Below are positions 1,728 to 43,370 of a DNA stretch of 64,000 nucleotides, piece after piece. Position numbers and translations under genes: made by a program. How positions within the stretch are numbered: the first letter of the stretch is position 1; the number at the start of each line of letters is the position of its first letter. The DNA is taken from positions 478,021 through 542,020 of the forward strand of contig CAZXZS010000001.1 of assembly GCA_964645655.1 (NCBI GenBank), read 5' to 3'. The notes under the pieces were generated by a model. The model was not told the DNA's origin. It worked only from the letters and a program-made list of their open reading frames with translations, and ran no database searches. This DNA is from an uncultured Gammaproteobacteria bacterium (GTDB lineage: Bacteria > Patescibacteriota > Patescibacteriia > 2-12-FULL-60-25).

Positions 1728-1930
1728 AGGTACGCATGATATCAGGTGCGACGCGTCGAGAGGTGGGGCGCAAAGCGCCTCCCTAGGTTGGTGGGTCCGC
1801 CGCCACTTTTTTCCGTGTTTCTATTAGCAAAAAAAGAAGAGCCGCCAACATGGGTTGGCGGCCTGGGGTGCGTGTCCGTCGGTTATTGGGGCGGTGCAGG
1901 GCACGAAGGCGACTGCCGCCTATCATCGGA

Positions 1931-3418
1931 TCACGCGAAGTAGAGAGGAGCCTCCTTCCCCGCGGCCACGAGGATGTTGTCGTCGGGATATTCCTCCAGC
2001 ATCTCGCGGATGAGGGCGGCGAGCCCCCCTTTCGTCTTGATGGCCTCATCGATGACGGCTCCCCACATGTCCAGGGAGTTCCCCCTGAAGTCGATCGATT
2101 CCGTCTTGAGGCCGGCGTGATTGGCGACCCGTTGCGCGCTCCTTTCGGACGGATAGAGAAGCGCGCCGACCCCGCAGAGGGCCTTCTTCAGCCCATTGCC
2201 GCTGGTGAACGTCAGCTCATTGCTCGGGGCGGCCTTGGGCTCAGGGGCGGGGAACGCGTTCAGGCACGCCTGTAGTTTCGGGTTCGAGACATCGGCCCTG
2301 TAGGCTCCGCGCACCAGCACTTCGAGTGCGTTCTGGCGCTGGAAGTACTTGACGAGCGCAGTGCTGGCCTTCGCGACATCGTCCGATCGCCTGACGATGT
2401 TCTCGAGCCGGAGGCTCAGCTCGTACCATGCCATCAGCCGCAGTTTTTCCCAGGTTGGGAAGGCGTCCTGCAGCGCTTCCGCGATCGCTTGAGGGGTGAT
2501 CTTCTCCTCGGTTGCGGTCGAGGATCCCTCGCTCGCCGTCGCCCCCTCCTCCCGCCGCACGAGCTCCGCGAGGAGCTCGTCCTGCAGGTTGCGGCCCTCG
2601 CGGGCGGCGCGGCCCCGCTCGTTCTCGTACTCGTCGACCGCCTTCCTCCAGTTGGGGTCGGCCTTCGCGAGGTTGCGGTAGTCGCCGCCCGCCGCGCGCA
2701 TGGCGCTGGCCATCGCGAACGCGTCCTTGGCGGGGACGAGCTCCGGCCGCACGCGGGTGCGCACGAACCGGACGAAGGCCTGGGCGGAGGGGCCCTTGAG
2801 GGCGTCCTCCGTCCGCCAGCCGATGCCGGCCTCGTCCTCGCCCGCGCTGAGCGGCTTGCCGTCCCAGGGGGACAGCCAGCGCGCCTTGCGGGGCGCCACC
2901 AGGTCCTTTGGCTCGATCACGGCGAAGCCCTTGTACGTCTTGCCGGCGGGCCGGTCCTCGCCCTCGTCGAGGAGGGCGACCATGAGGTCCCAGGTGGCCT
3001 CGGCGTCCACCCTCTGCTCCCCGGTGTCGGGGTTGACGCTCGCGAGGAGGAACTTGAGCTTCTTCCCGGCGGCCTCGATGGCCTCCGGGCGCTTCTCGCC
3101 GCGCGCGAGCGCCCCGAGGAGCGCGCGCGGCTTCATCTTGGCGAAGCCCTCGTCCGGCTCGGCGTCGGGGGACGCCTGCGCCGCCGCGGCGCGGACGGCC
3201 TCGAAGGCCACCAGGGCCCCGGGGGGGACCTTGGCCGCGAGGAGCTGGGCCTCGCTGGCCCTGAGGAAGACCTCGAGGGTCCGGATGCCGCCGTCGTACA
3301 TCGCGCGGGCGATCGCGATGACCTCCTCCTCGTGGAACTCGGCGGCCTGGAGGGCTGCCGCGATCGGGACGAAGAGCTTCTCGTTCATGCGGAGGTCGGC
3401 GGGCCGTTCGATCTTCAT
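1931..3418 (-). CDS. hypothetical protein: duplicated N-terminal region plus two C-terminal effector-associated (EAD/death-like) adaptor domains
   Basis: Start MKIERP at 3418 preceded by AAGGAGAG. C-terminal IAEALQDAFPTWEKLRLMAWYELSLRLENI...ALVKYFQRQNALEVLVRGAYRADVSNPKL resembles EAD1. The second module is SLDMWGAVIDEAIKTKGGLAALIREMLEEYPDDNIL. Confidence 0.7.
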   Translation of the reverse strand: MKIERPADLRMNEKLFVPIAAALQAAEFHEEEVIAIARAMYDGGIRTLEVFLRASEAQLLAAKVPPGALVAFEAVRAAAAQASPDAEPDEGFAKMKPRALLGALARGEKRPEAIEAAGKKLKFLLASVNPDTGEQRVDAEATWDLMVALLDEGEDRPAGKTYKGFAVIEPKDLVAPRKARWLSPWDGKPLSAGEDEAGIGWRTEDALKGPSAQAFVRFVRTRVRPELVPAKDAFAMASAMRAAGGDYRNLAKADPNWRKAVDEYENERGRAAREGRNLQDELLAELVRREEGATASEGSSTATEEKITPQAIAEALQDAFPTWEKLRLMAWYELSLRLENIVRRSDDVAKASTALVKYFQRQNALEVLVRGAYRADVSNPKLQACLNAFPAPEPKAAPSNELTFTSGNGLKKALCGVGALLYPSERSAQRVANHAGLKTESIDFRGNSLDMWGAVIDEAIKTKGGLAALIREMLEEYPDDNILVAAGKEAPLYFA

Positions 3419-3472
3419 TGTGTCGTCTCTCCTTGGTTCCCTCGTTGTTGATCGGCCTTCCGGCCCGAGGCC
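2549..3472. repeat. 924-bp direct repeat, copy 1
   Basis: All three forward-frame and reverse-frame ORF translations are identical to copy 2 (offset 1315) except one position (3419 T versus 4734 G). Confidence 0.9.
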
Positions 3473-3659
3473 CCTGCGTCCCACGGGAGGTGGGGGGAAG
3501 GGGGCTCGGGAGGAAGATTTTTATTAAGCACCGCTTTTGACGATGCTTTCCCCTTTGGGATCCTCCGGAGAGAATCGCATAGGGGATTGGCGCCAGGTCG
3601 CCAGGGAAGACATGCGGCAAACGGCCGCTGCCTGGATGCGTGGTTGGATGGGGGTGAGG

Positions 3660-4733
3660 TCAGCCGGACAGTCCGGTCAGGTCCCGGTACCCTTGGTCCT
3701 TGAGCCATGCCATGAAGGTCACGAGTTCGATGATGCTGATGCCTGAGCTGCTGATCCGGGTGATGAGTTTGCGCTTGTGGTCGAACTCGAACGCAGCTCG
3801 GGTCCTGGCGCTGACCCCGGATTCCGCTCCCCAGGGCTCCGCCGCCCCCTGCGGCGGCACGCTCTCCCGCCGCACGAGCTCCGCGAGGAGCTCGTCCTGC
3901 AGGTTGCGGCCCTCGCGGGCGGCGCGGCCCCGCTCGTTCTCGTACTCGTCGACCGCCTTCCTCCAGTTGGGGTCGGCCTTCGCGAGGTTGCGGTAGTCGC
4001 CGCCCGCCGCGCGCATGGCGCTGGCCATCGCGAACGCGTCCTTGGCGGGGACGAGCTCCGGCCGCACGCGGGTGCGCACGAACCGGACGAAGGCCTGGGC
4101 GGAGGGGCCCTTGAGGGCGTCCTCCGTCCGCCAGCCGATGCCGGCCTCGTCCTCGCCCGCGCTGAGCGGCTTGCCGTCCCAGGGGGACAGCCAGCGCGCC
4201 TTGCGGGGCGCCACCAGGTCCTTTGGCTCGATCACGGCGAAGCCCTTGTACGTCTTGCCGGCGGGCCGGTCCTCGCCCTCGTCGAGGAGGGCGACCATGA
4301 GGTCCCAGGTGGCCTCGGCGTCCACCCTCTGCTCCCCGGTGTCGGGGTTGACGCTCGCGAGGAGGAACTTGAGCTTCTTCCCGGCGGCCTCGATGGCCTC
4401 CGGGCGCTTCTCGCCGCGCGCGAGCGCCCCGAGGAGCGCGCGCGGCTTCATCTTGGCGAAGCCCTCGTCCGGCTCGGCGTCGGGGGACGCCTGCGCCGCC
4501 GCGGCGCGGACGGCCTCGAAGGCCACCAGGGCCCCGGGGGGGACCTTGGCCGCGAGGAGCTGGGCCTCGCTGGCCCTGAGGAAGACCTCGAGGGTCCGGA
4601 TGCCGCCGTCGTACATCGCGCGGGCGATCGCGATGACCTCCTCCTCGTGGAACTCGGCGGCCTGGAGGGCTGCCGCGATCGGGACGAAGAGCTTCTCGTT
4701 CATGCGGAGGTCGGCGGGCCGTTCGATCTTCAT
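3660..4733 (-). CDS. paralog of 1931-3418 with identical first ~290 aa and an unrelated short C-terminus
   Basis: Start MKIERP at 4733 with the same RBS. Amino acids are identical to the neighbour up to ...LLAELVRRE. The tail then differs (...KRKLITRISSSGISIIELVTFMAWLKDQGYRDLTGLSG) and is encoded in a lower-GC stretch. Confidence 0.65.
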   Translation of the reverse strand: MKIERPADLRMNEKLFVPIAAALQAAEFHEEEVIAIARAMYDGGIRTLEVFLRASEAQLLAAKVPPGALVAFEAVRAAAAQASPDAEPDEGFAKMKPRALLGALARGEKRPEAIEAAGKKLKFLLASVNPDTGEQRVDAEATWDLMVALLDEGEDRPAGKTYKGFAVIEPKDLVAPRKARWLSPWDGKPLSAGEDEAGIGWRTEDALKGPSAQAFVRFVRTRVRPELVPAKDAFAMASAMRAAGGDYRNLAKADPNWRKAVDEYENERGRAAREGRNLQDELLAELVRRESVPPQGAAEPWGAESGVSARTRAAFEFDHKRKLITRISSSGISIIELVTFMAWLKDQGYRDLTGLSG

Positions 4734-4787
4734 GGTGTCGTCTCTCCTTGGTTCCCTCGTTGTTGATCGGCCTTCCGGCCCGAGGCC
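3864..4787. repeat. 924-bp direct repeat, copy 2
   Basis: See copy 1. Covers the 5' UTR, RBS and first ~290 codons of both paralogs. Confidence 0.9.
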
Positions 4788-4860
4788 GCTCCGCCCCACC
4801 GGGGTGGGGGGGAAGGGGCTCGGGGCGGGAGGGGTAGGAGAGGGTATAACCAGCTTAGAC

Positions 4861-4889
4861 ATGCTACCAGAAAAATGCCTTATTGTCAA
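4861..4889 (-). promoter_or_regulatory. sigma70-like promoter TTGACA-17-TAGCAT
   Basis: Minus strand reads TTGACAATAAGGCATTTTTCTGGTAGCAT. The -35 box lies inside the palindrome TATTGTCAATA (4881-4891). Upstream of 3660-4733. Confidence 0.5.
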
Positions 4890-5012
4890 TAGTTTAGCTT
4901 AAATTACAGTAAAATAGACATTTTGTAAGTTAAAAATAGACACGACGCAGGCATTTTAAGTGAAGCTCGACAGAGCCTTCTTTTTCGCCTAAATTTAGGT
5001 TTTTTACAAATA

Positions 5013-5045
5013 AAGAGGGTACCCACACAGGATGCCCTCTTTTTT
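5013..5045. terminator. hairpin terminator after the ABC operon (bidirectional shape)
   Basis: AAGAGGG...CCCTCTT followed by TTTTT on plus and TTTATTTGT on minus. Confidence 0.5.
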
Positions 5046-5067
5046 CCGTTCCGGCATTCTTTCCGCC

Positions 5068-6828: not shown

Positions 6829-8569
6829 AGTGGTTGGTGCTTTGTTGGGAGGCGTGGATCTGTTGGTATTCCGGGGAAGAGGCAAGCAGTTCGCGGTGCG
6901 TGCCCGTGGCGAGGATCTCGCCTTCCATGAGAAGGATGACCTGTTCGTACCCTTCGACGGCCGCCAGCTTTTGCGTAACGGAAATGAGGGTGATGCCGGG
7001 GTAGTTCTCGAAGACGTTCTTCAGGATGCGCTGTTCCGTGGCGATGTCGACGCGGGCCGTGAAGTCGTCCAGGAGCAGGATCTTGGGGTTCAGGGCGAGG
7101 GCGCGGGCCAGCATGATGCGCTGCTTCTGTCCGCCGGAAAGGTTGAGGCCGCGTTCCGAGACCGGCGTATCGAGGCCTTCCGGCAGCGTTTCGATGAACC
7201 CTTGGAGTTCGGCGGTCTGGATGGCCTTCTGGAGGTCCGCTTCCGTGACCGTCTCGCTGAAGGCGATGTTCTCGCGCAAGCTTAGCTGGAAGAGAGCGCT
7301 GTCCTGGAACACGAAGCCGACCTGGCGCAGGAGCGAGGTCTTGTCATACGACGCGAGCGGCTGGCCATCGTAGAGGATCTCGCCGCCCGTCGGGGCGCTG
7401 AGGCCGGTGAGGAGCGTGAGAAGCTGCGTCTTGCCCGCGGCCGTGGGGCCGAGGATGGCGGTCTTGGTGCCCGGTTCGACGGTAAACGAGATGTCCTTCA
7501 AGATGGTCTTTTGGCCGATCGTGAGGGTGAGGCCCTTCACCTCCAGCCTGCCCTGCAGTTCGGAGACCCGCGTCCCTTCGGCCGGTTCCGCCGGACGCGT
7601 CAGGATCTCGCTCAGGCGTCCGTAGGAGGCGCTGGCACGTCCCATCAGGCTGCTCATGAAGCCGAGCATGAGGATCGGGAAGATGAGCATCGCGATGTAC
7701 CCGTTGAAGGCCGAGAGCGAGCCGAGCGTGATCTCGCCCGTGATGACGTAGTGCCCGCCCAGCAGGAGCACGATCAGGATGGCGACGTTCGAGAGGAAGG
7801 TCACGACCGGGATCAGGCTCGCGAACAGCCGGAGGATCTTGAAGCCGATGGTTTTCGCTTCCTCGTTGACCGCGAGGAACTTCTGCATCTCCTGGGCCGG
7901 CGCGTAGACGACGCGGATGAGGGTCGCGCCGAGGATGCTCTCGTTGATGACCTTGTTGAGGCGGTCGATGGCCTGTTGCGCGTTCTTGAACAGCTCGCCG
8001 ACGTTCGCGAAAATATAGCCGAACGCGCCCGCGATCACGGGCAGGACGGCAAGGACGGCCAACCCAAGCTTCCAATTGATATGGATGAGCAGGATGCTGG
8101 CGCCGATGATCATAAAGACCGACGAGACCATGGTCACGATCCCTTGCGCGACGAACATCTTGATCGAGTCGATGTCACCCGTGAAGCTGGTCATGAGGCG
8201 TGCGGCGCCGGTCTCTTGGACGTCGGCGTAGCTCTGGCGGGAGACGCTGCCGGCGAGGCGGTCGCGGAGATCCTTGGCGACGCGTTCCGAGAGGTAGGTC
8301 TGCGTCATGCTTTGGAGATACGCGAGGACGAAAATCAAGCCCGCGATGAGGGCGAACTCGCGCAGGTAGGCCGGCAGGATCAGCTGCCCCTGCGCGAACC
8401 GGTCGATCCCTTGGGCGACGAGCCGGGGGATGGTGAGGGTGAGCGCGTTGGCTGAGAGGGCAAAGCCGACGAGGAGGACGATGAGGCCACGATAGCCCTT
8501 CAATAAGCCAAAAACGGACGGTCCGGTCGGTTTCGGCTTGGCGGGGGAAGCGGTGCGTTTGGGAGGCAT
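6809..8569 (-). CDS. ABC transporter permease/ATP-binding protein (exporter type), heterodimer partner
   Basis: Walker A GPTAAGKTQ, signature LSGGQKQR, Walker B ILLLDDFT. ATG at 8569 (MPPKRTAS...) preferred over the longer ORF-track start. Confidence 0.9.
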   Translation of the reverse strand: MPPKRTASPAKPKPTGPSVFGLLKGYRGLIVLLVGFALSANALTLTIPRLVAQGIDRFAQGQLILPAYLREFALIAGLIFVLAYLQSMTQTYLSERVAKDLRDRLAGSVSRQSYADVQETGAARLMTSFTGDIDSIKMFVAQGIVTMVSSVFMIIGASILLIHINWKLGLAVLAVLPVIAGAFGYIFANVGELFKNAQQAIDRLNKVINESILGATLIRVVYAPAQEMQKFLAVNEEAKTIGFKILRLFASLIPVVTFLSNVAILIVLLLGGHYVITGEITLGSLSAFNGYIAMLIFPILMLGFMSSLMGRASASYGRLSEILTRPAEPAEGTRVSELQGRLEVKGLTLTIGQKTILKDISFTVEPGTKTAILGPTAAGKTQLLTLLTGLSAPTGGEILYDGQPLASYDKTSLLRQVGFVFQDSALFQLSLRENIAFSETVTEADLQKAIQTAELQGFIETLPEGLDTPVSERGLNLSGGQKQRIMLARALALNPKILLLDDFTARVDIATEQRILKNVFENYPGITLISVTQKLAAVEGYEQVILLMEGEILATGTHRELLASSPEYQQIHASQQSTNHYEVRAE

Positions 8570-8699
8570 AAAGGAATCCACGCATGATACACGGGTTAGG
8601 GGGTTTTGTCTAGTCGGACGGGTCACCCACCGAGGATGTGATGTTCGTCCAAAAAAAGTCGACCCATGAAAAAGGGCCGACATTTTTCCTGTCGACGGC

Positions 8700-9128
8700 T
8701 TAGCTGGCTTCCGCTTCCGCATGCCCCTTGAACCGGTCCAAGATCGCCTGCCAGCCCGCCCGTTGCATTTCGAGCGGGTTCTCCGTTTCCGGATCGAAGG
8801 TCTCGGTGACGAGGACGCCTTCCGGCGTCGCCTCGAAGGTCACGGTCACCTGGCGGCCGTCTGGCATCGCATAGGCGAGCTTCTGTTCGGGGACGACCTC
8901 CTGGTATGTGCCCGTGAAGTCGAAGCTCGCGCTGCCGTCGCGGGCGGCCATGGTGGCGCTGAACGTCCCGCCGGGGCGCACGTCGTTCGTCGCGGCCGGG
9001 CAGTGCCAGTCGTCGGAGGCGGCGTTCCAGGCCATGATGTGCTGCGGTTCCGTCCAGCAGGCCCAGGTGCGGGCGGGGGAGGCCTGTACGAGGGCTTCGA
9101 CGGTGATTTTGGGTTTCGGGTCGGTCAT
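8700..9128 (-). CDS. SRPBCC/AHSA1-like domain protein
   Basis: MTDPKPKITVEALVQASPARTWACWTEPQHIMAWNAASDDWHCP...FDFTGTYQEVVPEQKLAY is the typical Aha1/SRPBCC pattern. Internal ATG 9128 of ORF 8700-9770. Confidence 0.75.
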   Translation of the reverse strand: MTDPKPKITVEALVQASPARTWACWTEPQHIMAWNAASDDWHCPAATNDVRPGGTFSATMAARDGSASFDFTGTYQEVVPEQKLAYAMPDGRQVTVTFEATPEGVLVTETFDPETENPLEMQRAGWQAILDRFKGHAEAEAS

Positions 9129-9162
9129 ATGGTTTGTCGATAATCCGATTATGCAGATTATT

Positions 9163-9600
9163 CTATTTCTTCGCCGCGCAGTTGAACATCCAGTGGACCC
9201 CGAACCGGTCGGTGCAGGAACCGAAGTAGTCGTCCCAGAACATGTCCTGGAGGGCCATCTCGACCTTGCCGCCGGTGGAGAGGGCGTTGAAGAGGCGTTC
9301 CGTCTCCTCGCGCGTGTCCGGTTCGAGGTTGATGTAGACGTTGTTACCGAAGCGGACGGTGAAGCCCATCGACTCGGGGGCGTCGGTGCCCATGATCTTG
9401 TGGCCCCCGAGGATGGGGAGACAGATGTGCATGACCAGATCCTTGTCCTCGTCGGTGAGGGCAGGCGCGTCGGGTTGCGGAGGGATGTCGCGGAAGCGCC
9501 TGATGCCGCCCTCGAACTCGCCGCCGAAGACGGACTGGTAGAAGGTGAAGGCTTCCTCGGTGTTGCGGGGGAAGTTGAGGTAGGTGCTGGTGGAGGGCAT
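9163..9600 (-). CDS. VOC (glyoxalase/PhnB-like) family protein
   Basis: YLNFPRNTEEAFTFYQSVFGGEF...VMHICLPILGGHKIMGTD...FWDDYFGSCTDRFGVHWMFN is the PhnB/VOC pattern. ATG 9600. Confidence 0.75.
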   Translation of the reverse strand: MPSTSTYLNFPRNTEEAFTFYQSVFGGEFEGGIRRFRDIPPQPDAPALTDEDKDLVMHICLPILGGHKIMGTDAPESMGFTVRFGNNVYINLEPDTREETERLFNALSTGGKVEMALQDMFWDDYFGSCTDRFGVHWMFNCAAKK

Positions 9601-9766
9601 AGGGGAGGGGTGCGGATGACCGTTGCCTTTCGTTGTACTGACTCGTGAAGGGGATGGCAAGCGGAGTCACGCTCGTGTTTCCCGACGAGGGGGATGTTTA
9701 TCGCTGGGATGTTCCATAAAAAAAGCGCCCTTCCCCGGCAGCGCGGGAGGGCGTTTGAGGAAGGCG

Positions 9767-10231
9767 TCACGCGGGGAAGACGGCGATGGTCCCGTGGTCG
9801 AACACCACGACCGCGACGCCGGTAAGCTCGCGCAGCCGCTCACCGGTTTGGCGGTCGAAGGTCTCGACGACCTTCTGGATCCATTCACGGTCGGCAAGGC
9901 CCCTCGCATAGGGGACCATGCCCCAGGCGCGGATCGAGCTCCAATCGTGACCGGGCATCAGCCCTTCCGCGACATCGGCACCCAGGTGATCGTCGACGTT
10001 CACGAGGACGATGACGGCTTCAGCCGGTTGGTGGCCGCGTTCCGTCAGGCGTCGCTTGAAGTGGGCCACGCGGTCAGCGTTCTTGTCGAGGGTGTCGCGG
10101 CAGGCGAGTTGCGCCTGCCGCTTGTTGTATGCGATCACGACCTGCAGCACGGCCGCCGCATCCGGGTCTACGAGCTGCGTCTTCCCGTTCTCTTGCCGTA
10201 CGACGGCAGGCGGCTCGTCTCTGTTGCTCAT
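9767..10231 (-). CDS. hypothetical protein
   Basis: ATG 10231. Protein-like composition. No motif recognised. Confidence 0.5.
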   Translation of the reverse strand: MSNRDEPPAVVRQENGKTQLVDPDAAAVLQVVIAYNKRQAQLACRDTLDKNADRVAHFKRRLTERGHQPAEAVIVLVNVDDHLGADVAEGLMPGHDWSSIRAWGMVPYARGLADREWIQKVVETFDRQTGERLRELTGVAVVVFDHGTIAVFPA

Positions 10232-10505
10232 GGGAGAACCTCTCTTGCTTCGTTTTTGAGCATGTTCATACCGATCCCACGCCCGACGGATCCGTCACGG
10301 GGCGCAGTCTAGCATCGATCGCTCCCCTTGTCAATCCTTCCGCGACGCATCGCGCGGACTGATGGGAACGGATTGGCGCATGGGCTTGCTTGGTGGCCGT
10401 CCCGTGTCGCGCTCGCGATGCCGGAGCTTGACACGCCCCCTTTTTCCGTCTAGGTTCGAGTCGGTCCAGTTTCCCGTGCCGCGTGGCGGCAATAAGGAGG
10501 TACCC

Positions 10506-11279
10506 ATGGTCGACGATCAAGTCGGGATCGATGATCGACGCTGGCAGGAAGATGATGCCTTGGCCCTCGATCTGGGCCGGAAGCTGCTCAGGGAGTTCGC
10601 CAAGCGGGGCCTCGCGACGCGCGCGCTCGTCCGGCACGTCACCGACAGCATGGGGAAGACGGTGATGGTCGACCACGCCATGCGGGCGGCATTGCATGAG
10701 GTCAGGCATCCCCTGCGGGAAGACGAGCGGATCGCGCATTTCACCCCGGGGCTCCACCTGTATGCGCCCCGCCTGAAGGCGGAATTCTATCGTGGCGGCG
10801 TGGACGATCGTGCGTTCCACGACATGCTGGACGGCCGTCAGATCCTGCGGCGGCTCCACTGGTCGTGCGTCGGTCGCGACACGACGCCCGGGTACAAGGT
10901 GTTCCGCATCGTCCGTCCACGCGAAGAAATCCCCGTCGAACGGCTCGTCTTCGAACTGGGTCGCCAGGGCTACCGTCCTGCCTGCCTGGACGAGCTCGAC
11001 GCCCTGGCGCGCGCCCATCCCGATTTGGTCACGGTGCTGCCGTTCGAGCCAGGCATCCGGGAGATTCGCTGCCCATCGCGGCTCGTGGCGATGGGTGAGA
11101 TGGATGTGGCGTGGGACGCGTGCACCGGTCGCCCGTTTTCGTGCTCATGGTACGCCGTATCGAACACGCCAGCCGGCCCGGCGCTTCTCCTACACGGCAG
11201 CAACGACCCCTCGCCCGGCAACGACTACGTCTTCATCCGCATGCCGGGCCTCGGCCGACTGCCGTTCCCGGCGCGCTAG
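10506..11279 (+). CDS. hypothetical protein
   Basis: ATG 10506 preceded by AAGGAGG (10494-10500). No motif recognised. Confidence 0.6.
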   Translation: MVDDQVGIDDRRWQEDDALALDLGRKLLREFAKRGLATRALVRHVTDSMGKTVMVDHAMRAALHEVRHPLREDERIAHFTPGLHLYAPRLKAEFYRGGVDDRAFHDMLDGRQILRRLHWSCVGRDTTPGYKVFRIVRPREEIPVERLVFELGRQGYRPACLDELDALARAHPDLVTVLPFEPGIREIRCPSRLVAMGEMDVAWDACTGRPFSCSWYAVSNTPAGPALLLHGSNDPSPGNDYVFIRMPGLGRLPFPAR

Positions 11280-11382
11280 GGGCGCATTCCCGTGGGGCTC
11301 CGCTCGCGGGATTTTTTTGTTTGCGCGTGCAGGGCTTCGGAACGCGAGGGCGCGTTTCATGCGTGTGGCGGGGGGTGATCGC

Positions 11383-11601: not shown

Positions 11602-12183
11602 TTACCAGGAGGTGTGGGGCAGGTGGGACGTCGCGTTGAGGCGGCGGACCTCCCAGATGCCCTGGCGGGGGAGCCAGCGCAGGGAGGTGACCGAGGCGTG
11701 GTCGACGTGGAAGTGGTCCGCGAGCGCGGGCGGCAGGTCGAGGAGGACCTGCAGGAGGGGGCGGATCGCCGTCGCGTGGGTGACGGCGACGATCGTCTTC
11801 TCGACGCCGGGGGTCGGTGACCGTTCGACGGTGTCGAAGAGCCAGCGTCGGACGCGCGACCCGACCTCGACCGCGTCCTTGGCGCCCAGGGGCCCGTCGC
11901 GCGGCGGCGTTCCGGCCGGACCTGCCGGAGCTGCGCGGTCCAGGCGTTCGTCCGTGGGAACCGGTGTTCCCGGCGGGATCCTCAGGCCCGGGTACAGGAG
12001 CTCCATGGTCTCGCGGGCCCAGAGGCGCGTCGAGCTCCAGGCGGCATGGATGTACATGGGGTTCCGGAGGAGGTAGGCGTTGAGGGCGGCGGCCTGGGCG
12101 CGCCCGATCTCCGACAGCGCCCCGTCCGCTTCGTCGCCCGCGCGGATCAGATGCAGGGAGACCTTCTGTTTCGTGTCGAACAT
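11602..12183 (-). CDS. histidine phosphatase (phosphoglycerate mutase-like) family protein, atypical first motif
   Basis: ATG 12183 after AAGGAG. SLHLIRAGDEADG sits where RHGE is expected. The second motif VAVTHATAIRPLL is present. Confidence 0.65.
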   Translation of the reverse strand: MFDTKQKVSLHLIRAGDEADGALSEIGRAQAAALNAYLLRNPMYIHAAWSSTRLWARETMELLYPGLRIPPGTPVPTDERLDRAAPAGPAGTPPRDGPLGAKDAVEVGSRVRRWLFDTVERSPTPGVEKTIVAVTHATAIRPLLQVLLDLPPALADHFHVDHASVTSLRWLPRQGIWEVRRLNATSHLPHTSW

Positions 12184-14405: not shown

Positions 14406-14554
14406 CTTTTTCCCTTGATTCCTGCCGCCCGCGCTGGTACAGTCCACCGCGCGTGCGTGCCTGGGGTGGCCATCCGTGGCCCTCCGGAACCGACACGCGG
14501 AGGGGACCCGTGCCCGCGCCCCGCGGCCACGGCCCGTCCAAACCCCACCAGCCT

Positions 14555-14646
14555 GGAGAGGTACCCAAGAGGCTGAAGGGGGGAGATTGCTAATCTCCTA
14601 GGGGTGTAAAAAGCCCGCGAGGGTTCGAATCCCTCCCTCTCCGCCA
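14555..14646 (+). tRNA. tRNA-Ser (anticodon GCU), CCA encoded
   Basis: GGAGAGGTACCCAAGAGGCTGAAGGGGGGAGATTGCTAATCTCC, long variable arm, GAGGGTTCGAATCCCTCCCTCTCCGCCA. Confidence 0.9.
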
Positions 14647-14666
14647 TGATATGTCGTTATCGGAGA

Positions 14667-14684
14667 CGTCTCGCGTGCCTCAAA
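14667..14684. repeat. 18-nt direct repeat, copy 1
   Basis: CGTCTCGCGTGCCTCAAA versus CGTCTCACGTGCCTCGAAA at 15458-15476. Confidence 0.5.
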
Positions 14685-14816
14685 CATGCGAGAAATGTTC
14701 GATGGCATATGACCAGTAAAACCGTCCGAAAGGGCGGTTTTACATTAAACGAGGGATTAATCTAAAATGTAAGTAAAGCAGTTGTACGGAAAGAGCTTTC
14801 CGAATTGCGGTTGTTA

Positions 14817-14884
14817 AAACTTTCGAACCGGCTCCCCAATAGCCAGTCAACAAAACGATCCGCTATTTAGGCGGATAGTTTTGT
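14817..14884. repeat. 39-nt conserved motif plus hairpin, copy 1 (island I)
   Basis: AAACTTTCGAACCGGCTCCCCAATAGCCAGTCAACAAAA, then hairpin ATCCGC-TATTTAG-GCGGAT. 33/39 identical to copy 2. Confidence 0.6.
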
Positions 14885-14898
14885 AATAGATCAAAAAA

Positions 14899-15372
14899 TT
14901 AGCCAGCAACAAATACATTGATGTAATGCTCCCCAAAGGAAATAACTGGGACAAAGGATAAGATCACTAACCCGACCCCGATTGAGAAAAAGACGCTAGA
15001 TACCTTTGGTAAATCGCTAGAGTTAGATCGTCCCTGATACACCCAAAAAGCAAGGGGAATACAGGATGATAATGAAATAGTGAGACCTAAGAGAAAAAGA
15101 TTAAGCTCTACCTGACTATGCGGGTCAAAATCAGTAAATCGGATCGGGAGAGGCTCATCCTTACCATAGAATGCATTAGCGTAGTATCCATCTAGGTCTG
15201 AGCCGGAACCATGAACGCCGGTCGACTCAACTGTAAATGGACCCAGCGCATGACGGTTCACGTAATACTCTTCAAATCTCACATCTGAGGCACCAAAGCT
15301 TTTACCCAAAGAGGCTAAAGCATATAGAACTCCGAAGCACAGAAATATGGTTCTCGCCAAAAATTTCAACAT
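14899..15372 (-). CDS. hypothetical membrane protein
   Basis: ATG 15372. N-terminal signal or TM segment plus C-terminal hydrophobic helices. AT-rich codons. Confidence 0.55.
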   Translation of the reverse strand: MLKFLARTIFLCFGVLYALASLGKSFGASDVRFEEYYVNRHALGPFTVESTGVHGSGSDLDGYYANAFYGKDEPLPIRFTDFDPHSQVELNLFLLGLTISLSSCIPLAFWVYQGRSNSSDLPKVSSVFFSIGVGLVILSFVPVISFGEHYINVFVAG

Positions 15373-15457
15373 AAGATGCTAAAAAGATACTCCTGACATG
15401 TGGAAAGTACAATGATTTACTACCATATTCCGTGTCTCATTTGTCTCATTTTGACCC

Positions 15458-15476
15458 CGTCTCACGTGCCTCGAAA
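15458..15476. repeat. 18-nt direct repeat, copy 2
   Basis: See 14667-14684. The pair brackets gene 14899-15372. Confidence 0.5.
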
Positions 15477-15647
15477 ATACCTGGATTTTGACCCTTGAAA
15501 AAGCCCTTGGGTTACACGTTTTCCTGGTTGCATAACTCGACTGGCCCGCCATCAAGAAATTCGCTCAAATGAGCGTATTTTTTGTTTGATGGGAAAAGGA
15601 AAATCGAAACTTCCGAGCGAACTCACGGGAAGCTATACTGATAGCAC

Positions 15648-15893
15648 ATGTCTAATTTTCAAGAATCAAAGACCCGTACGGCCTTAAAAACCGTCCTCTG
15701 GAGAATCGTTGCTACTTTAATTACATGGGGAAGCCTCTACTATTTCACGGGGCAATTTTTTGAATCGAGTAAGATTACGATCGTAGCAGCGCTTATCGGT
15801 ATGGTGGCATACTACATTTATGAACGCGTATGGAACGTTGTTAAATGGGGAAAATACGACGCGGAAGATTCCCAATCTCGTCAGGGATCCTAA
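15648..15893 (+). CDS. DUF2061 family membrane protein
   Basis: KTVLWRIVATLITWG...IVAALIGMVAYYIYERVWNVVKWG matches the DUF2061 pattern. Confidence 0.75.
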   Translation: MSNFQESKTRTALKTVLWRIVATLITWGSLYYFTGQFFESSKITIVAALIGMVAYYIYERVWNVVKWGKYDAEDSQSRQGS

Positions 15894-15958
15894 AGTTTCG
15901 AACCAGCTCCCCAATGGCCCGCCAGCAAAAAAGCGTCCGTGATTACGGACGCTTTTTT
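15892..15958. repeat. 39-nt conserved motif plus hairpin, copy 2 (island I)
   Basis: AAAGTTTCGAACCAGCTCCCCAATGGCCCGCCAGCAAAA, then hairpin GCGTCCGT-GATT-ACGGACGC and a T-run. Confidence 0.6.
15933..15958 (+). terminator. intrinsic terminator
   Basis: GCGTCCGT / ACGGACGC stem plus T6, after the DUF2061 gene. Confidence 0.65.
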
Positions 15959-16036
15959 GCTGCGAGACCCGCTGGCTTGAGCGCTATCCTTGTGGTCTGC
16001 TCGCAAATGCGGAATGCTGTTCCGTGTATTTCGAAT

Positions 16037-16384
16037 ATGCCATCCCCGCAAGACATTACGTCTCAGATCCTCGCTTTTCGCGACGCTCGCAACTGGAAGC
16101 GGTTTAACAATCCAAAAGACATGGCGCTTTCCTTGGTCCTTGAAGCTACGGAACTCGTGGAGCATTTCCAATGGAAAAACGCTGAAGAAATGGATATCCA
16201 CCTGAAGGGGCGGCGCGCCGAGATCGGCGAGGAATTGGCCGATGTCCTCTACTGGGTCCTCCTCATGGGGCATGATTTTCAAATCGATGTCTTCGACGCC
16301 CTAGAAAAGAAGCTTGAGAAGAATGCCGCGAAATATCCGGTGGACAAGGCGAAGGACGTGCACACGAAATATACGGAGCTATAA
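16037..16384 (+). CDS. MazG-like nucleotide pyrophosphohydrolase
   Basis: ILAFRDARNWKRFNNPKDMALSLVLEATELVEHFQW...EELADVLYWVLLM...LEKKLEKNAAKYP is the MazG/dCTPase-like all-alpha NTP-PPase pattern. ATG 16037 preferred over ORF-track start 15845. Confidence 0.8.
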   Translation: MPSPQDITSQILAFRDARNWKRFNNPKDMALSLVLEATELVEHFQWKNAEEMDIHLKGRRAEIGEELADVLYWVLLMGHDFQIDVFDALEKKLEKNAAKYPVDKAKDVHTKYTEL

Positions 16385-16386
16385 GT

Positions 16387-18261
16387 ATGCAGATTTACGA
16401 ATCCTCCAAGGAAGCCTTCATTGACGTCGTCCGCGGCGGTAAGATCGACCAGGTCCTAATCGATTTTTATTATAAGGCAACCGGCAAAATGGTGGGCAAG
16501 GCCGAACAGGAATCATGGAAGAAATCCATGCGATATATGCGGGACGTGCTACGCGATCGGGAGATCCCTGCGGATGCGGGCGTGTCGATCGAATACCATA
16601 TCCCGCACACGTCGATGCGGGTTGACTTCATCTTGACCGGGCAAGACGTGGCCGGGATCGACCACGCCCTATTGATCGAGTTGAAGCAATGGTCTGAGGC
16701 TCAGCTTTCTCATAAGGACGGGATAGTCAGTACGAAATTTTTTGGAGAGGTGAGCCACCCATCGTATCAAGCCTGGTCCTATGCTGCCCTCTTGCAGGGA
16801 TTTAGCGAGACCGTGGAACAGCAGAGCGTTCAGTTGAAGCCATGCGCGTACCTGCATAATTACATCAGCGATGACGTCATCAAGAATCCGGTTTACGGGG
16901 AATACCTGGCCAAGGCGCCCGTCTTTCTCGAGGGGGATGAGGAAAAGGAGAAGCTGCAGGCCTTCATTAAGCGATTCGTTCATCGTGGCGACAAAACGCG
17001 TCTCATGTACCGGATCGATGGCGGAAGATTCAGGCCCTCTAAAGGACTCGCTGAAAGCCTCGCTCGCATGCTGGAAGGCAACAAGGAATTCATCCTGATC
17101 GACGAGCAGAAAGTGGTTTACGAAACGGCCCTAAGTCTGGCGAAGGAGTCTTCTGCAGAGAACAAGAACGTCCTGATTATCCGCGGGGGTCCCGGAACCG
17201 GGAAGTCGGTTGTCGCGATCAATTTGCTGGTTGCTTTGACGAAGCTTCGTCTTTGGACCCAGTACGTAACCAAGAATCTTGCGCCACGAGCTGTCTTTGA
17301 ATGCATGTTGACGGGAAAAATGACCAAGACCGAGATCGCTAGCCTCTTCGCCGGCTCCGGTTCGTTTACCGAGGCCCCAAAGAACGCTTTCGATGCGCTC
17401 GTCGTGGATGAGGCGCATCGCCTGAACGAGAAATCCGGCATCTTCAGGCATCTTGGCGAGAACCAGATCAAGGAGATCGTCGAAGCATCAAAATTCTCTG
17501 TTTTCTTTATCGATGAAGACCAGCGGGTCACCTGGCATGATATCGGAGAGGTGGGGGAGATCAAGCGGTGGGCGACGGTTTCTGGGGCGAAGGTACAGGT
17601 CATGGATCTTTCCTCCCAATTTCGCTGTAACGGGTCCGATGGGTATCTCGCATGGCTCGACGACACGCTCCAAATTCGGGAAACGGCCAATCCGGTCCTT
17701 GATGTGAAGGAATACGATTTTCAGGTCGTCGATTCACCCACCCAATTGCAAGAGCTTGTATTTAAGAAGAACAGAGAAAAGAACCGAGCGCGTATGGTCG
17801 CCGGCTATTGCTGGGAATGGGTGAGCAAGAAGAACAAGGCGCTCCTGGATATCCGCTTTCCCGAGCATGGATTTGCAATGCGCTGGAATCTGGAGAGCGA
17901 CGGCGGTCTCTGGATCTTGGGCCGTGATTCCGTAAACGAGGTTGGGTGCATCCATACGTGCCAAGGGCTTGAAATGGATTATGTTGGCGTGATCGTTGGA
18001 CCCGATCTGATCGTCCGAAACGGGAATATCCTGACCGTCCCAGAGAAGCGCGCCAAGTCAGATGCTTCGATCAAGGGCTACAAGACCTTGCTTGCAAAAG
18101 ATCCGGGTCAGGCCGCCAAGAAGGCCGATGCGATTATCAAGAACACCTATCGAACCCTCATGACGCGCGGTATGAAGGGTTGTTATGTGTATTTTACGGA
18201 TAAGGAGACAGAGGAGTATTTCAAGAATCGCGCGCGCCCGCGGGTACTTGGAGGGTGGTAG
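16387..18261 (+). CDS. DUF2075-type ATPase/helicase with N-terminal PD-(D/E)xK-like nuclease motif (Nhi/Schlafen-helicase-like)
   Basis: N-terminal RVDFILTG...LLIELKQW. Walker A GGPGTGKS, Walker B VVDEAHRL, C-terminal TYRTLMTRGMKGCYVY. The start lies 2 nt after the MazG stop. Confidence 0.85.
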   Translation: MQIYESSKEAFIDVVRGGKIDQVLIDFYYKATGKMVGKAEQESWKKSMRYMRDVLRDREIPADAGVSIEYHIPHTSMRVDFILTGQDVAGIDHALLIELKQWSEAQLSHKDGIVSTKFFGEVSHPSYQAWSYAALLQGFSETVEQQSVQLKPCAYLHNYISDDVIKNPVYGEYLAKAPVFLEGDEEKEKLQAFIKRFVHRGDKTRLMYRIDGGRFRPSKGLAESLARMLEGNKEFILIDEQKVVYETALSLAKESSAENKNVLIIRGGPGTGKSVVAINLLVALTKLRLWTQYVTKNLAPRAVFECMLTGKMTKTEIASLFAGSGSFTEAPKNAFDALVVDEAHRLNEKSGIFRHLGENQIKEIVEASKFSVFFIDEDQRVTWHDIGEVGEIKRWATVSGAKVQVMDLSSQFRCNGSDGYLAWLDDTLQIRETANPVLDVKEYDFQVVDSPTQLQELVFKKNREKNRARMVAGYCWEWVSKKNKALLDIRFPEHGFAMRWNLESDGGLWILGRDSVNEVGCIHTCQGLEMDYVGVIVGPDLIVRNGNILTVPEKRAKSDASIKGYKTLLAKDPGQAAKKADAIIKNTYRTLMTRGMKGCYVYFTDKETEEYFKNRARPRVLGGW

Positions 18262-18294
18262 GTTGACGCACTATCGACTTCTCTTAACCCCCTT

Positions 18295-18323
18295 TTGACG
18301 CCCCTCTCCCCAGGGCATACCGT
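18295..18323 (+). promoter_or_regulatory. sigma70-like promoter TTGACG-17-TACCGT
   Basis: Upstream of 18360. Confidence 0.4.
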
Positions 18324-24007: not shown

Positions 24008-25144
24008 TCAGCCGGCCCGCTGGAGCGCCGGGGGCGGTACGAGCGCGCCCCTGAGCCGGGCCAGGAAGTCGGTCGCCTGCGCGTACCCGTCGGCGTGGAT
24101 GTAGTGCGGGCCCTTGGACAGGGTCACCACGTCGGCGAAGAGGTGTGCCAGGTCTCGGCCGGTCGCGGCCCACTGGATGTCGATCACGTGCGCGCGCCAG
24201 TTGATCCGGATGTCGCCGCTCGAGGTCTCGACCGCGAAGCCCGGGCCGTGCCAGCGCTCCTTGCCGGGCGCGTATGGGTTCGGGAGGCGCGTGAAGCGGA
24301 GCGACGGGCCGTCGTAGCCGGCGCGTTCGAACGCCTGGCGGAACGCGGTCTCGATCGCCTGGGCCAGGTGCCCCACGCGACAGGCGAGGTGTGCCTGGTC
24401 GTAGCGCGCCACGAGGATCTCGTCTCCCGGGCGGATGACGTAGGTGCCGGGCACAAGGCGCGCCACCGTCCATCCGTGCTCGTTCCGGGCCAGGTCCGGT
24501 GCGTTCGGGTCTGGACGGAGGTCGATGAGGTCGTCGTTGCGGATCACGCGCTCGGAGTGGATGGCGTAGCGCGCGTCTTGCCGCCGCCGGTAGGCCTTGC
24601 GCACCTGGTCGAGCGTCTGGCCGACGAAGGGCGTCCCCGGGACCACGAGCTCCGTGAAGGCCTGGTCGCAGTCGAGGAAGGTCTCCATGGTCCAGGGCTG
24701 CCGGCAGAACGTGCAGCGCTCCCAGGGCCTCGGGATGGTCGCCCCGCTCTTGTCGAGGGGCTTGGTGCGGTACCAGCCGTCCCAGCCAGGCGCGCGCACC
24801 TTCAGCCGGGCGTAGAATTCCTCCAGCGGGATCACCGTCGGGACGGGCTCGTCCGGACCGTCGGCCATCGGCGGGCCGACGATGGCGCTCGCGGTGCCGT
24901 CCGCCTCGAGGAGGAGCTTCCCGAAGACGACCCAGTCGTGCAGCCTCAGCCCGTGGGCGTGCATCTTCTCGCGGGTGATGACCAGGCGGTTCAGGTCCTT
25001 CAGGGAGCCGATGCGTTCGCGGATGCCTGCGAGCGTATCGCAGCCATCGACCAGCGCATGGGGAGGGTCGCCCCACACCGCGCCGACGCGCTTCCAGATC
25101 TCCCATTGGCGGGTGTTGTGGCGGCTTTTTTTGCTCTCGTTCAT
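24008..25144 (-). CDS. hypothetical protein, dispersed paralog family (partner at 55321-56376)
   Basis: ATG 25144 (MNESKK...). Shared blocks FGKLLLEADG, CTFCRQPWT, HLACR, NPYAPGKERWHGPGF. Confidence 0.6.
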   Translation of the reverse strand: MNESKKSRHNTRQWEIWKRVGAVWGDPPHALVDGCDTLAGIRERIGSLKDLNRLVITREKMHAHGLRLHDWVVFGKLLLEADGTASAIVGPPMADGPDEPVPTVIPLEEFYARLKVRAPGWDGWYRTKPLDKSGATIPRPWERCTFCRQPWTMETFLDCDQAFTELVVPGTPFVGQTLDQVRKAYRRRQDARYAIHSERVIRNDDLIDLRPDPNAPDLARNEHGWTVARLVPGTYVIRPGDEILVARYDQAHLACRVGHLAQAIETAFRQAFERAGYDGPSLRFTRLPNPYAPGKERWHGPGFAVETSSGDIRINWRAHVIDIQWAATGRDLAHLFADVVTLSKGPHYIHADGYAQATDFLARLRGALVPPPALQRAG

Positions 25145-25223
25145 GGGGTGCTCCCGGGGGTCTTGCGTTTGGATGGGGGAACGGCTTCGGGAAGATCCGA
25201 TCGGGCCGGTCAGAAAGCGCCTC

Positions 25224-25252
25224 ATCCTAGCAGGGGATGCGGATCTCGTCAA
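25224..25252 (-). promoter_or_regulatory. sigma70-like promoter TTGACG-17-TAGGAT
   Basis: Minus strand, upstream of 24008-25144. Confidence 0.5.
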
Positions 25253-35270: not shown

Positions 35271-36416
35271 TCAGAACGCGGTCGAGCGGCCGTAGCGCCT
35301 GGAGGAGAACGCCGTGCGGTTGCGGTGGCGCTTCTCGAACGGGTCGTTGACCCAGAAGTAGCTGCCGAGGACGCCCGTCACCGCGAGGGTGATGAGCCAG
35401 CCGAGGACGAGGATCCACGTCGGCGGGGTGACCGTCGCGTAGAGGTACTCGTACTCCGCCATCGGCGTACGCACGAAGTTGTTATCGACCTCGTTCTCGA
35501 TGATGTGGGCTACGGCCGCCGCGTCGAAGGCCGGGAGAGCCTCGATCCGAGTGCGGACGTTGTCCTTGACGCGTTCGTTGCGCGTCCAGGTGACGAACTC
35601 GACCCAGCCGATGCGCGGGTACTCGGGTAGGCCGATCACGACGGTGAAGTCGTTCTTCTCGGCGCCGTGGTCCGAATCGACCCAGCGCTCGCGGAGGCCC
35701 TCGGCGAAGCCACGGTCGCTCACACTCGTGAGGACGGCGGTGATGTTGACCTGGCGGGCCGCGCCGAGACGGTCGTTGGTCCGGTCAAGGGCGGCCTGGA
35801 GCGTCTGGAGATCCGTCGCGGGCACCGCCGCGCCCGCGTTGATGACCCGGTCGATGCGGTAGAAGTCTCGCACCCGGGGGTAGTCGGGGAGCTGGCCGGC
35901 GAAGCGGGCGGCGACCCCGCGGCTGCGGAGGATGGAACTCGACCCGGCGGCGCGGATGTAGTTGGTGTACGAGTGCTCCTGCGCCGTCGGCTCGCCGATG
36001 CGGATCCGCGTCCAGTCGGCCGGCTCGCTCGCGTAGGGTGGGTTGCAGGTGCTGCTGTACACGGTCTCGTCGTTGGACGAGGTGGCCGTCCACGACTGGT
36101 CGTGGGAGTGGCTACACACCCTGCGGCTACACGTCTTGGTGTGGCCGTTGCTGTCCGTGCCGCATGGGTAGGTCTCGGTGTGGCAATGGCAGCACGAAGT
36201 CCAGGTGTCGTGGTCCTTGCGGGCCACATGGCCGTTCCAGATCTCGGTGCTGGTGGTCTTGTACTTGAGGCCGATGGCGACCGTCGCGCTGCAGCACACG
36301 AGCGCAACGCCGAGGAGGGCCGCCAGCTCCTTCCAGTCGATCCGGCCCTTGCCGGCGGCGTAGAGGGTGACGATCACGATCACGGGGATGACGAGCAGGC
36401 CGAGCGTCCAGATCAT
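35271..36416 (-). CDS. hypothetical membrane protein with Cys/His-rich segment, co-transcribed with the lemA-like gene
   Basis: ATG 36416 (MIWTLGLLVIPVIVIV...). CCHCHTETYPCGTDSNGHTKTCSRRVCSHSH. C-terminal TM segment. Strong promoter at 36486-36514. Confidence 0.6.
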   Translation of the reverse strand: MIWTLGLLVIPVIVIVTLYAAGKGRIDWKELAALLGVALVCCSATVAIGLKYKTTSTEIWNGHVARKDHDTWTSCCHCHTETYPCGTDSNGHTKTCSRRVCSHSHDQSWTATSSNDETVYSSTCNPPYASEPADWTRIRIGEPTAQEHSYTNYIRAAGSSSILRSRGVAARFAGQLPDYPRVRDFYRIDRVINAGAAVPATDLQTLQAALDRTNDRLGAARQVNITAVLTSVSDRGFAEGLRERWVDSDHGAEKNDFTVVIGLPEYPRIGWVEFVTWTRNERVKDNVRTRIEALPAFDAAAVAHIIENEVDNNFVRTPMAEYEYLYATVTPPTWILVLGWLITLAVTGVLGSYFWVNDPFEKRHRNRTAFSSRRYGRSTAF

Positions 36417-43342: not shown

Positions 43343-43370
43343 ATCTATAAACGAAAAGGTCTAAGGACTG

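Follow-up and report, generated by a model that had tools for sequence, protein, structure and literature searches.

A tandem gene pair with one apparently conversion-homogenised head and distinct tails, including a tandem EAD1, in a seemingly Saccharibacteria-like genome

This study concerns two adjacent minus-strand genes, here called A and B, that lie in a 64,000-nt stretch of contig CAZXZS010000001.1 (assembly GCA_964645655.1; the whole stretch is referred to as the window). Both proteins begin with the same 290-residue region, the head, and then continue into different C-terminal tails: tail A carries two tandem copies of effector-associated domain (EAD) 1, and tail B carries a small domain that appears to belong to no known family. 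We read the pair as an ancient operon whose heads have been kept alike by gene conversion and whose tails might provide adaptor outputs. Taken as a whole, this reading has in our opinion somewhat better than an even chance of being right. Its evolutionary part, namely an old duplication, gene conversion and a fast-evolving head, is very probable in the light of the sequence comparisons presented below, and its functional part, in which the tails act as adaptors of a conflict system, is nearly evenly poised, leaning to the doubtful side.

Origin and upkeep of the shared head

A repeat search and a base-by-base comparison (offset 1315) revealed a direct repeat of 924 nt, with copy 1 at 2549-3472 and copy 2 at 3864-4787, both on the minus strand. 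Positions 2549-3418 are identical to 3864-4733 and positions 3420-3472 to 4735-4787, and the sole mismatch is 3419 T versus 4734 G, the base directly 5′ of the ATG. Each copy comprises 54 nt of leader (53 identical untranslated nt, including an AAGGAG Shine-Dalgarno sequence, plus the mismatched base) and the 290 head codons of one gene. Gene A (1931-3418, ATG at 3418-3416; protein P0001) encodes 495 aa, that is the head (aa 1-290), a Ser/Thr/Glu-rich linker and two tandem EAD1, and gene B (3660-4733, ATG at 4733-4731; P0003) encodes 357 aa, that is the head (aa 1-290) and tail B. The identical region ends in LLAELVRRE, beyond which the proteins differ, tail A having 205 aa and tail B 67 aa. 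The near-perfect tandem repeat with a single mismatch, and the point where the proteins part, had been noted in the original prediction, and our comparisons bear out both; the roughly 290 codons that it assigned to the repeat, together with leader and ribosome-binding site (RBS), are exactly 290 codons and 53 nt of leader. The starts in its list of open reading frames (ORFs), GTG at 3484 and TTG at 4889, are mechanical assignments, and the common ATG, with the AAGGAG RBS 8–10 nt upstream, is the likely start. The GC content of the head by codon position is 0.75/0.48/0.99 and the minus-strand frame is therefore the coding frame; the high GC content of 74% accounts for the long ORFs on the other strand.

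The locus is a fixed chromosomal site in a small clade of metagenome-assembled genomes (MAGs), in which two to four paralogues of the same head carry tails of type B, C or A. The closest relative (L001) is collinear with window positions 5219-1658 and has B (P0004) followed by A (P0002). On the 172.8-kb contig of L006 the order is ABC1, ABC2, B (8395-9507), A (9761-11320), two small genes, comF, a membrane protein that we call MNSKR and a VirB4-like ATPase. A B-type gene (P0005) directly follows the same ABC transporter in L002, a complete C-type gene is found in L003, and in L004 an A-type gene (P0007) with two EAD1 (78.5 bits) lies downstream of a truncated paralogue whose tail holds one EAD1 only (type C, 24.4 bits).

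Comparison of these loci revealed two different groupings. Tails group by type, with 49% identity for tail B (window versus L006), 59% for tail A (L006 versus L004) and 80% for tail C (L003 versus L004). Heads group by genome: the nucleotide identity of heads within one genome is 923/924 in the window, 1024/1024 in L006 and 92.9% in L001, and the amino acid identity of orthologous heads is 77% between the window and L001, 97% between L002 and L006 and 29–46% between other lineage pairs. This pattern indicates that the duplication is older than the split of at least four lineages, and that within each genome gene conversion maintains the heads at or close to full identity, synonymous sites and the 53 nt of leader included. 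The head pair of L001 is a mosaic in which codons 1-100 and 200-293 hold only one synonymous and two non-synonymous differences in all and codons 100-200 have a dS of 0.16-0.48, a pattern that we take as the signature of conversion tracts. Purifying selection at the protein level was also considered as the cause of head identity and is ruled out, since synonymous sites and the untranslated leader are identical too. The original prediction had offered very recent duplication or ongoing gene conversion as explanations; homogenised heads together with tail types shared across lineages speak for the second and exclude the first.

How fast does the head evolve between genomes? When the window is compared with L001, nucleotide identity is 96–100% in the flanks and in both tails, whereas it drops abruptly at the ends of the head tracts and lies at 67–91% in every 100-nt block of these tracts except one. 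At the amino acid level the head is 77% and the tails are 96–97% identical. In the same comparison, Nei-Gojobori estimates give dN 0.144-0.161 and dS 0.20-0.22 for the head, compared with dN 0.015 and dS 0.02 for tail A and dN 0.02 and dS 0.09 for tail B; dN/dS of the head is around 0.73 overall and exceeds 1 in three 50-codon blocks. By these estimates, the amino acid sequence of the head changes 8–10 times as fast as that of the tails in the two genes. More distant pairs show the same contrast: heads are 30% and tail C 80% identical between L003 and L004, heads 29% and tail A 59% between L006 and L004, and heads 39% between the window and L006, whose flanking ABC2, MNSKR and ComF are 93%, 92% and 73% identical. 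These comparisons indicate that between genomes the head diverges far faster than both the tails and the flanking genes. The idea of a constant head with exchangeable tails, put forward in the original prediction, consequently holds within a single genome only; between genomes it is reversed, the head being hypervariable and the tails conserved.

A further feature of the head is its GC content at third codon positions (GC3), which is 0.990 in the window (3 of the 290 codons end in A or T), 0.997 in L001, 0.990 in L006 and 0.985 in L004, compared with 0.79-0.93 in tails and flanking genes. Counted in bins of 29 codons, GC3 of both genes in the window falls from 1.00 to 0.83-0.86, and the step coincides exactly with codon 290; other lineages show a similar step. 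Across 43 plausible genes of the window, mean GC3 is 0.865 (sd 0.047) with a maximum of 0.969. Between the heads of the window and L001, 50 of the 54 third-position differences are exchanges of C and G; thus, third positions change often and yet stay G or C. A GC3 of about 0.99 that is confined to the tract is most simply read as the probable footprint of long-term GC-biased gene conversion, acting on DNA that is converted repeatedly. In this respect, raised GC3 has been reported in recombining bacterial genes and attributed to GC-biased gene conversion (Lassalle et al. 2015, PMC4450053).

Domains, leaders and surroundings

Tail A could be assigned with confidence by profile search. Protein A matches PF19955 (EAD1) of Pfam with 54.7 bits (E = 1.4e-14; gathering cut-off 24.2 bits), and each module, when scanned on its own, exceeds the cut-off: EAD1 a (2264-2491, minus strand; aa 310-385) scores 36.0 bits over profile positions 9-85 of 90 and EAD1 b (1958-2185, minus strand; aa 412-487) scores 32.6 bits over positions 9-86 of 90. 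The modules are C-terminal and measure around 76–85 aa each. A-type orthologues match EAD1 at 78.5 bits (L004) and 85.4 bits. The call of EAD1 made by eye from the letters alone was therefore right for both modules. The accompanying term death-like fared less well: the best match of an EAD1-module profile among PDB sequences is the CARD of BCL10, which is not significant (E = 0.32, 14.5 bits), and it is EAD3 (bDLD1), not EAD1, that is classed as Death-like (PMC7159879). EADs are small non-enzymatic all-alpha domains at the N- or C-terminus of proteins, proposed to act as homotypic coupling adaptors that join effector or signalling domains to core components (PMC7159879 section 30; PMC8195603), and the domains linked to them are taken as effectors (PMC7159879; PMC8195603). 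According to the pair rule, one copy resides on the core component and the other on the effector or signalling protein, with homotypic bridging between the two (Kaur et al. 2020, PMC7159879 section 30).

Tail B had been described as a short unrelated tail encoded by lower-GC DNA, and neither half of this description holds. Its domain (3663-3836, minus strand; aa 300-357) is a small alpha/beta module of around 55 aa that shares 96% of its residues with its counterpart in the close relative and 49% with distant homologues, with the motif WG.ESGVS..TR.AF.FDH.RK...F..WL..QGY...TGL.G in the alignments. The AlphaFold2 (AF2) model is helix-strand-strand-helix, with a predicted local distance difference test (pLDDT) of 71-83 over aa 301-350 and 59 for the last block. 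We found no match to tail B in Pfam, PADLOC or PHROGs and no significant match among PDB sequences, and these results point to a conserved domain outside the known families. As for composition, tail B has 65.7% GC, tail A 64.1% and the window 62%; the outlier is the head with 73.7%, and the DNA of 46% GC at 4788-5067 corresponds to the promoter region ahead of gene B.

The head comprises two domains. The N-terminal helical domain (aa 1-82; 3173-3418 in gene A and 4488-4733 in gene B, minus strand) is modelled by AF2 as six helices with pLDDT 64-88; it is the most variable part of the head (23–47% identity between lineages) and is joined by an acidic low-complexity linker to the core. It might possibly resemble a HhH or SAM domain, which we regard as a weak lead and not as a result: matches to HHH_5 (E = 0.025-0.17, 12.9–15.5 bits) are below the cut-off of 27, and Foldseek aligns around 58 residues with the SAM domain of EphA1 (TM-score normalised to the target 0.52-0.62, root-mean-square deviation 2.5-2.8) but at E of about 8-10. 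The core (aa 95-290; 2549-3136 in gene A and 3864-4451 in gene B, minus strand) is a novel alpha/beta domain with the conserved motifs SPW(D/N)G, G.D....W and AF(V/T)(R/V)F.RTR and a terminal junction helix, LLAELV(K/R)R. For both proteins and their distant homologues, the head has no significant match in Pfam, NCBIfam, PADLOC or PHROGs; its profile finds only designed helical repeats among PDB sequences (E > 0.3), it shows no relation to the EAD1 profile, and whole-chain Foldseek searches of PDB and BFVD yielded no match at E < 0.1 (the AF2 model of the head from 3 sequences has pLDDT 61, and that of gene B from 6 sequences has pLDDT 76 and predicted TM-score 0.36). No signal peptide or transmembrane segment is visible in the protein sequence.

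The head family is also extremely scarce. A word-indexed search of 5.8e9 clusters recovered four proteins only, that is the window's own pair (759,211-bp NCBI contig) and P0002 and P0004 on one 3.6-kb contig, and 4 hits emerged when the head profile was run exhaustively by HMMER against 1.84e9 representatives; of these, P0005, P0006 and P0007 were new. Five of the six clusters looked up are singletons and the sixth has five members. On these results, the head is a novel, extremely rare family of no known fold or function.

Every head-bearing gene is preceded by a leader of around 90 nt, which is 84–100% conserved where the heads are only 30–40% identical. Leader 1 (4734-4826, minus strand) is the 5′-untranslated region of gene B and consists of a hairpin, a small second hairpin and the AAGGAG RBS; leader 2 (3419-3510, minus strand) precedes gene A, and only its 3′ 54 nt are inside the 924-nt repeat. 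In L006, leaders occur at 8303-8394, 9669-9760 and 11696-11783, and the third copy precedes a 181-aa gene. The main hairpin is a 16-bp imperfect GC-rich stem (CCCGAG.CC..CCCCAC/GUGGGG..GG.CUCGGG), and the second is a small GGCC hairpin. According to RNAalifold and pair counts, pairing in helix 1 is complete (100%); 14 of its 16 pairs do not vary, and one shows a compensatory change from CG to UA. Covariation is weak and the z-score of the fold against shuffled sequences is -0.42. The leader has no match in Rfam and no further occurrence within the window, a scan of metagenomes returned two unrelated high-GC coding hits (L008, L009), and a viral scan returned none. Variants specific to the A position and to the B position exist, each orthologous across genomes.

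At the other end of the variable tract lies a junction block (window 2551-2588 and 3866-3903), CTCCTCGCGGAGCTCGTGAAGCGGGAC..GTGCCGCCG, which encodes LLAELVKRDSVP, in general terms LLAELV(K/R)R(D/E)SVP, and has almost the same nucleotide sequence in the window, L001, L003 and L004. It holds an 8-bp palindrome, the inverted repeat CGAGCTCC-TCGC-GGAGCTCG, which may reflect the mere complementarity of GAG and CTC codons, and the conversion tract ends just past the block. Two conserved nucleotide blocks, leader and junction, hence bracket the variable tract, and they might act as homology arms when paralogues convert one another or strains exchange sequence.

Upstream of gene B there is a sigma-70-like promoter (4861-4889, minus strand; TTGACA-17 nt-TAGCAT with an extended -10 TG) that matches the consensus at 10 of 12 positions; 3 promoter-like sites were observed compared with 0.3 expected in shuffled sequences, and a TTGACA...T(A/T)TCAT block aligns upstream of the B genes of L001, L002 and L006. 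An intrinsic-terminator-like hairpin (1840-1863, minus strand; 10 pairs, 7 of them GC, followed by CTTCTTTTTT) lies 68 nt past the stop codon of gene A. Because a promoter precedes B and a strong terminator-like hairpin follows A, the pair looks like one operon, with the order promoter, leader, B, leader, A, terminator. Its neighbours are an ABC-exporter pair on one side and DUF1653/comF on the other.

Two relatives carry extra small genes after gene A (L006 11811-12980; L004 2328-3110), which are absent from the window and L001, and the locus therefore gains and loses adaptor-only genes. In L006, the 181-aa gene encodes a helical N-terminal part and an EAD1-like C-terminal part that matches the profile over its full length but below threshold (14.5 bits), and a 205-aa gene likewise gives a full-length sub-threshold match (18.6 bits; hhalign not significant). 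The 260-aa gene after A in L004 encodes an unrelated protein (hhalign against the EAD1 module not significant). Taxon labels disagree among these assemblies: L001 is labelled uncultured Candidatus Saccharibacteria, and L006 and L004 uncultured Gammaproteobacteria. As ABC2 and MNSKR of L006 are 92–93% identical to those of the window, the labels cannot all be correct; the host seems to be a Saccharibacteria-like organism with a reduced genome.

Other parts of the window contain features of separate interest. A low-GC (52%) island at around 14,550-18,300 adjoins a tRNA gene (14555-14643) and encodes a MazG-like protein (15845-16384, PF12643, E = 4e-17) and a Schlafen group 3/DUF2075-type helicase (16387-18261, PF09848, E = 1e-100), which also matches the PADLOC models PDC-S41 (3e-13), AbiO and Nhi; the two genes (15845-18261) look like a candidate defence pair. 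A second low-GC island (37–44%), at around 42,000-50,700, is bordered by the gene for a tyrosine integrase (49322-50524, PF00589, E = 2e-31) and by a tRNA gene (50609-50681, minus strand), and probably represents a mobile element that has become integrated; searches of Pfam and PADLOC with its large ORFs on the minus strand (371, 477 and 563 aa) returned nothing beyond a weak match to HEPN_AbiU2 (E = 0.0035). A pentapeptide-repeat protein (59377-60663, minus strand; PF00805, E = 1e-20) and a protein with a C-terminal M23 peptidase domain (57449-59221, plus strand; E = 2e-26) are encoded further along. Many other large ORFs of the window have no Pfam match, for example 24008-25252, 35271-36482, 36765-38393 and 38673-40178.

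Function and alternative readings

What might such a pair do? In the mechanism that we propose, the head would be a specificity or effector module under diversifying pressure, and the tails would be alternative coupling adaptors that plug one head into two sets of partners or outputs. EAD1 would recruit protein A, through homotypic EAD1-EAD1 contacts, to an EAD1-bearing partner encoded elsewhere, and gene conversion, aided by the leader and junction blocks, would place any new head variant on all outputs, driving head GC3 to saturation as a side-effect. With regard to partners, a custom hidden Markov model search of the six-frame ORFs of the window found no second EAD1, head or tail-B domain, and the only EAD1 copies are the tandem pair inside gene A. 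The partner could be encoded elsewhere on the contig, or the tandem EAD1s could pair mutually or between subunits. The trait of EAD systems that variable modules diversify fast between close relatives is seen in the head.

Several observations weigh against this proposal or parts of it. Pfam scanning of 20 large ORFs of the window found no NTPase, STAND, vWA-MoxR, GAP1 or caspase core, in agreement with the original statement that no STAND/NTPase partner is visible there. Among the invariant residues of the head, no His, Cys or Ser looks catalytic, and whole-chain Foldseek searches with its models (pLDDT 61-76) gave no fold match. The two EAD1 modules of protein A are only about 19% identical. 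As dN/dS of the head is around 0.7 overall and above 1 only in sub-blocks, and dS is distorted by the constraint on GC3, positive selection is not demonstrated, and recombinational import of diverged alleles could produce the same tenfold excess in the head. Stretches of 100 codons with GC3 of 0.98-0.99 also occur in a few other genes of the window, and codon-usage selection is an alternative, not preferred, cause of head GC3. Finally, the exact identity of the copies could be slightly overstated by consensus collapse in the assembly of a MAG.

The strongest competitor is a non-conflict, lineage-specific scaffold or regulatory pair, binding for example DNA or protein through a HhH/SAM-like N-terminal domain, in which EAD1 would be a generic helical oligomerisation module, conversion would be neutral, and head divergence would come from relaxed constraint together with conversion-associated mutation or GC-biased gene conversion. 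We give it about one chance in four. The ORFs examined in the window hold no conflict-system core and PADLOC gave no hit, the site is syntenic, between housekeeping genes and not in an island, dN/dS is not clearly above 1, and the common conserved leader suggests ordinary co-regulation. However, all descriptions of EAD1 to date come from conflict and apoptosis-like systems (PMC7159879, PMC8195603), divergence of the head greatly outpaces that of the tails, and a family that is extremely rare and restricted in lineage fits accessory or conflict genes better than core regulators.

A bolder form of the proposal, which we consider rather unlikely, makes conversion itself adaptive. The head would be a fast co-evolving recognition surface, either a receptor for a molecule of an invader or host or itself a guarded target, and shown identically on two or three adaptors (tandem EAD1, single EAD1 and tail B), with the leader and junction blocks as homology arms and with head alleles spreading among paralogues and strains by recombination in a naturally competent episymbiont. 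In a guard or decoy version of the same idea, B would be the working protein and A an EAD1-tagged sensor copy kept in lock-step by conversion.

Still less likely, indeed very improbable, is a polymorphic-toxin-like or contingency locus with a constant delivery head and interchangeable toxic tips. The combination of one N-terminal region with different C-termini inside a genome is what such a locus would offer, but across genomes the heads vary and the tails are conserved. Moreover, the tails are non-enzymatic EAD1 adaptors and a 55-aa mini-domain instead of toxins, and no immunity-like ORF follows either of them, the interval from the B stop codon to the leader of A being ORF-free and A being followed by the terminator. 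No secretion, PT-trafficking, pre-toxin or toxin domain and no signal peptide was detected in the proteins.

An assembly artefact, whether a single gene duplicated or chimerically joined or two diverged copies collapsed into one, would be a natural suspicion for a near-perfect repeat of around 1 kb in an apparent MAG, particularly as the contigs of relatives that hold the locus are often very short (1.5–3.6 kb), as expected at an assembly-breaking repeat. Against this, each copy has unique sequence on both sides and the two ORFs are complete, with different conserved tails; the layout of B followed by A recurs in three independent assemblies, one of them the 172.8-kb contig with its own identical 1024-nt repeat and another with a partly diverged mosaic pair; and the conservation of tail B in distant lineages speaks against a chimeric junction. 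We therefore hold an artefact to be hardly credible. A very recent tandem duplication with fusion to new 3′ ends and without gene conversion, equally hard to credit, would account for the 923/924 identity in the window, but orthologous B and A tails, together with conserved gene order and leaders, flank lineage-specific homogenised heads that are 29–40% identical, so independent events would need to recreate the same two tails each time, horizontal transfer of the pair from one source is ruled out by the same head identity, and the mosaic of identical and diverged blocks in L001 is typical of conversion tracts.

Significance and comparison with known systems

EAD1 and concerted evolution are each already known, and what is new here is their combination. 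New elements are the rare EAD1-linked domain, a conversion tract that covers part of a gene and coincides with its hypervariable segment, alternative adaptor tails that include an undescribed mini-domain, the common structured leader, and the host lineage labelled Saccharibacteria. If our reading of an ancient, conversion-homogenised operon with adaptor outputs is correct, the locus would represent a previously undescribed EAD1-linked family, with around ten sequences among some 15 billion proteins, and would extend EAD adaptor logic from the multicellular bacteria for which it was defined to a Saccharibacteria-like lineage with reduced genomes. It would also provide a clean natural case of concerted evolution that affects only part of a gene and homogenises the very segment that diverges fastest, as well as a sharp test case for GC-biased gene conversion in bacteria, with GC3 falling from about 0.99 to about 0.83 at the tract boundary in four lineages. 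Should conversion prove adaptive, this would be an immune module of the death-adaptor type in an ultra-small bacterium of the candidate phyla radiation. Even under an ordinary reading, the locus corrects the intuitive view of a constant head with variable tips.

In comparison with EAD1-coupled conflict systems (Kaur et al. 2020, PMC7159879; Kaur et al. 2021, PMC8195603), the EAD1s of gene A are likewise terminal and fused to a fast-diversifying non-EAD module, and neighbouring genes in relatives also carry an EAD1 (upstream in L004, 24.4 bits) or a sub-threshold EAD1-like domain (L006). Unlike in those systems, no VMAP, iSTAND, GAP1, Ubl, STAND or TRADD-N core was found in the ORFs examined in the 64 kb, two EAD1s stand in tandem in one polypeptide, the linked module is novel and without enzymatic signature, the EAD-linked head is duplicated onto a second, non-EAD tail and homogenised by conversion, and the host appears to be Saccharibacteria-like with a reduced genome and not a multicellular bacterium.

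With polymorphic toxin, contact-dependent growth inhibition and Rhs loci, the pair shares an N-terminal region with alternative C-termini within a genome; it differs from them in that variability between strains is reversed and that toxin, immunity and secretion-associated domains are lacking here. Hypermutation by a diversity-generating retroelement was considered and rejected. Such an element would have two short repeats differing mainly at adenines and a nearby reverse transcriptase, whereas the repeats here are identical over a 924-nt span, the differences between genomes are not adenine-specific, as the C and G exchanges at third positions illustrate, and there is no reverse transcriptase among the window ORFs scanned with Pfam. 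The raised GC3, exactly over the converted tract, resembles what the hypothesis of GC-biased gene conversion describes (PMC4450053).

The presence of a domain both in a protein without the adaptor and fused to an immune-type adaptor recalls, as an analogy only, the integrated decoys of plants; there is no homology and no nucleotide-binding leucine-rich repeat receptor (NLR) at this locus. Plant NLR pairs with integrated decoys are paired immune receptors. Concerted evolution by intragenomic gene conversion is known in bacterial paralogues such as tuf and the rRNA operons. As in such concerted paralogues, the tracts described here are identical at synonymous and non-coding sites, have sharp boundaries and form a mosaic in L001. 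Unlike classic concerted evolution, however, conversion affects only the leader and head of each gene and the C-terminal domains stay distinct, and, whereas tuf and rRNA are slow housekeeping genes, the homogenised tract is here the fastest-evolving part of the locus.

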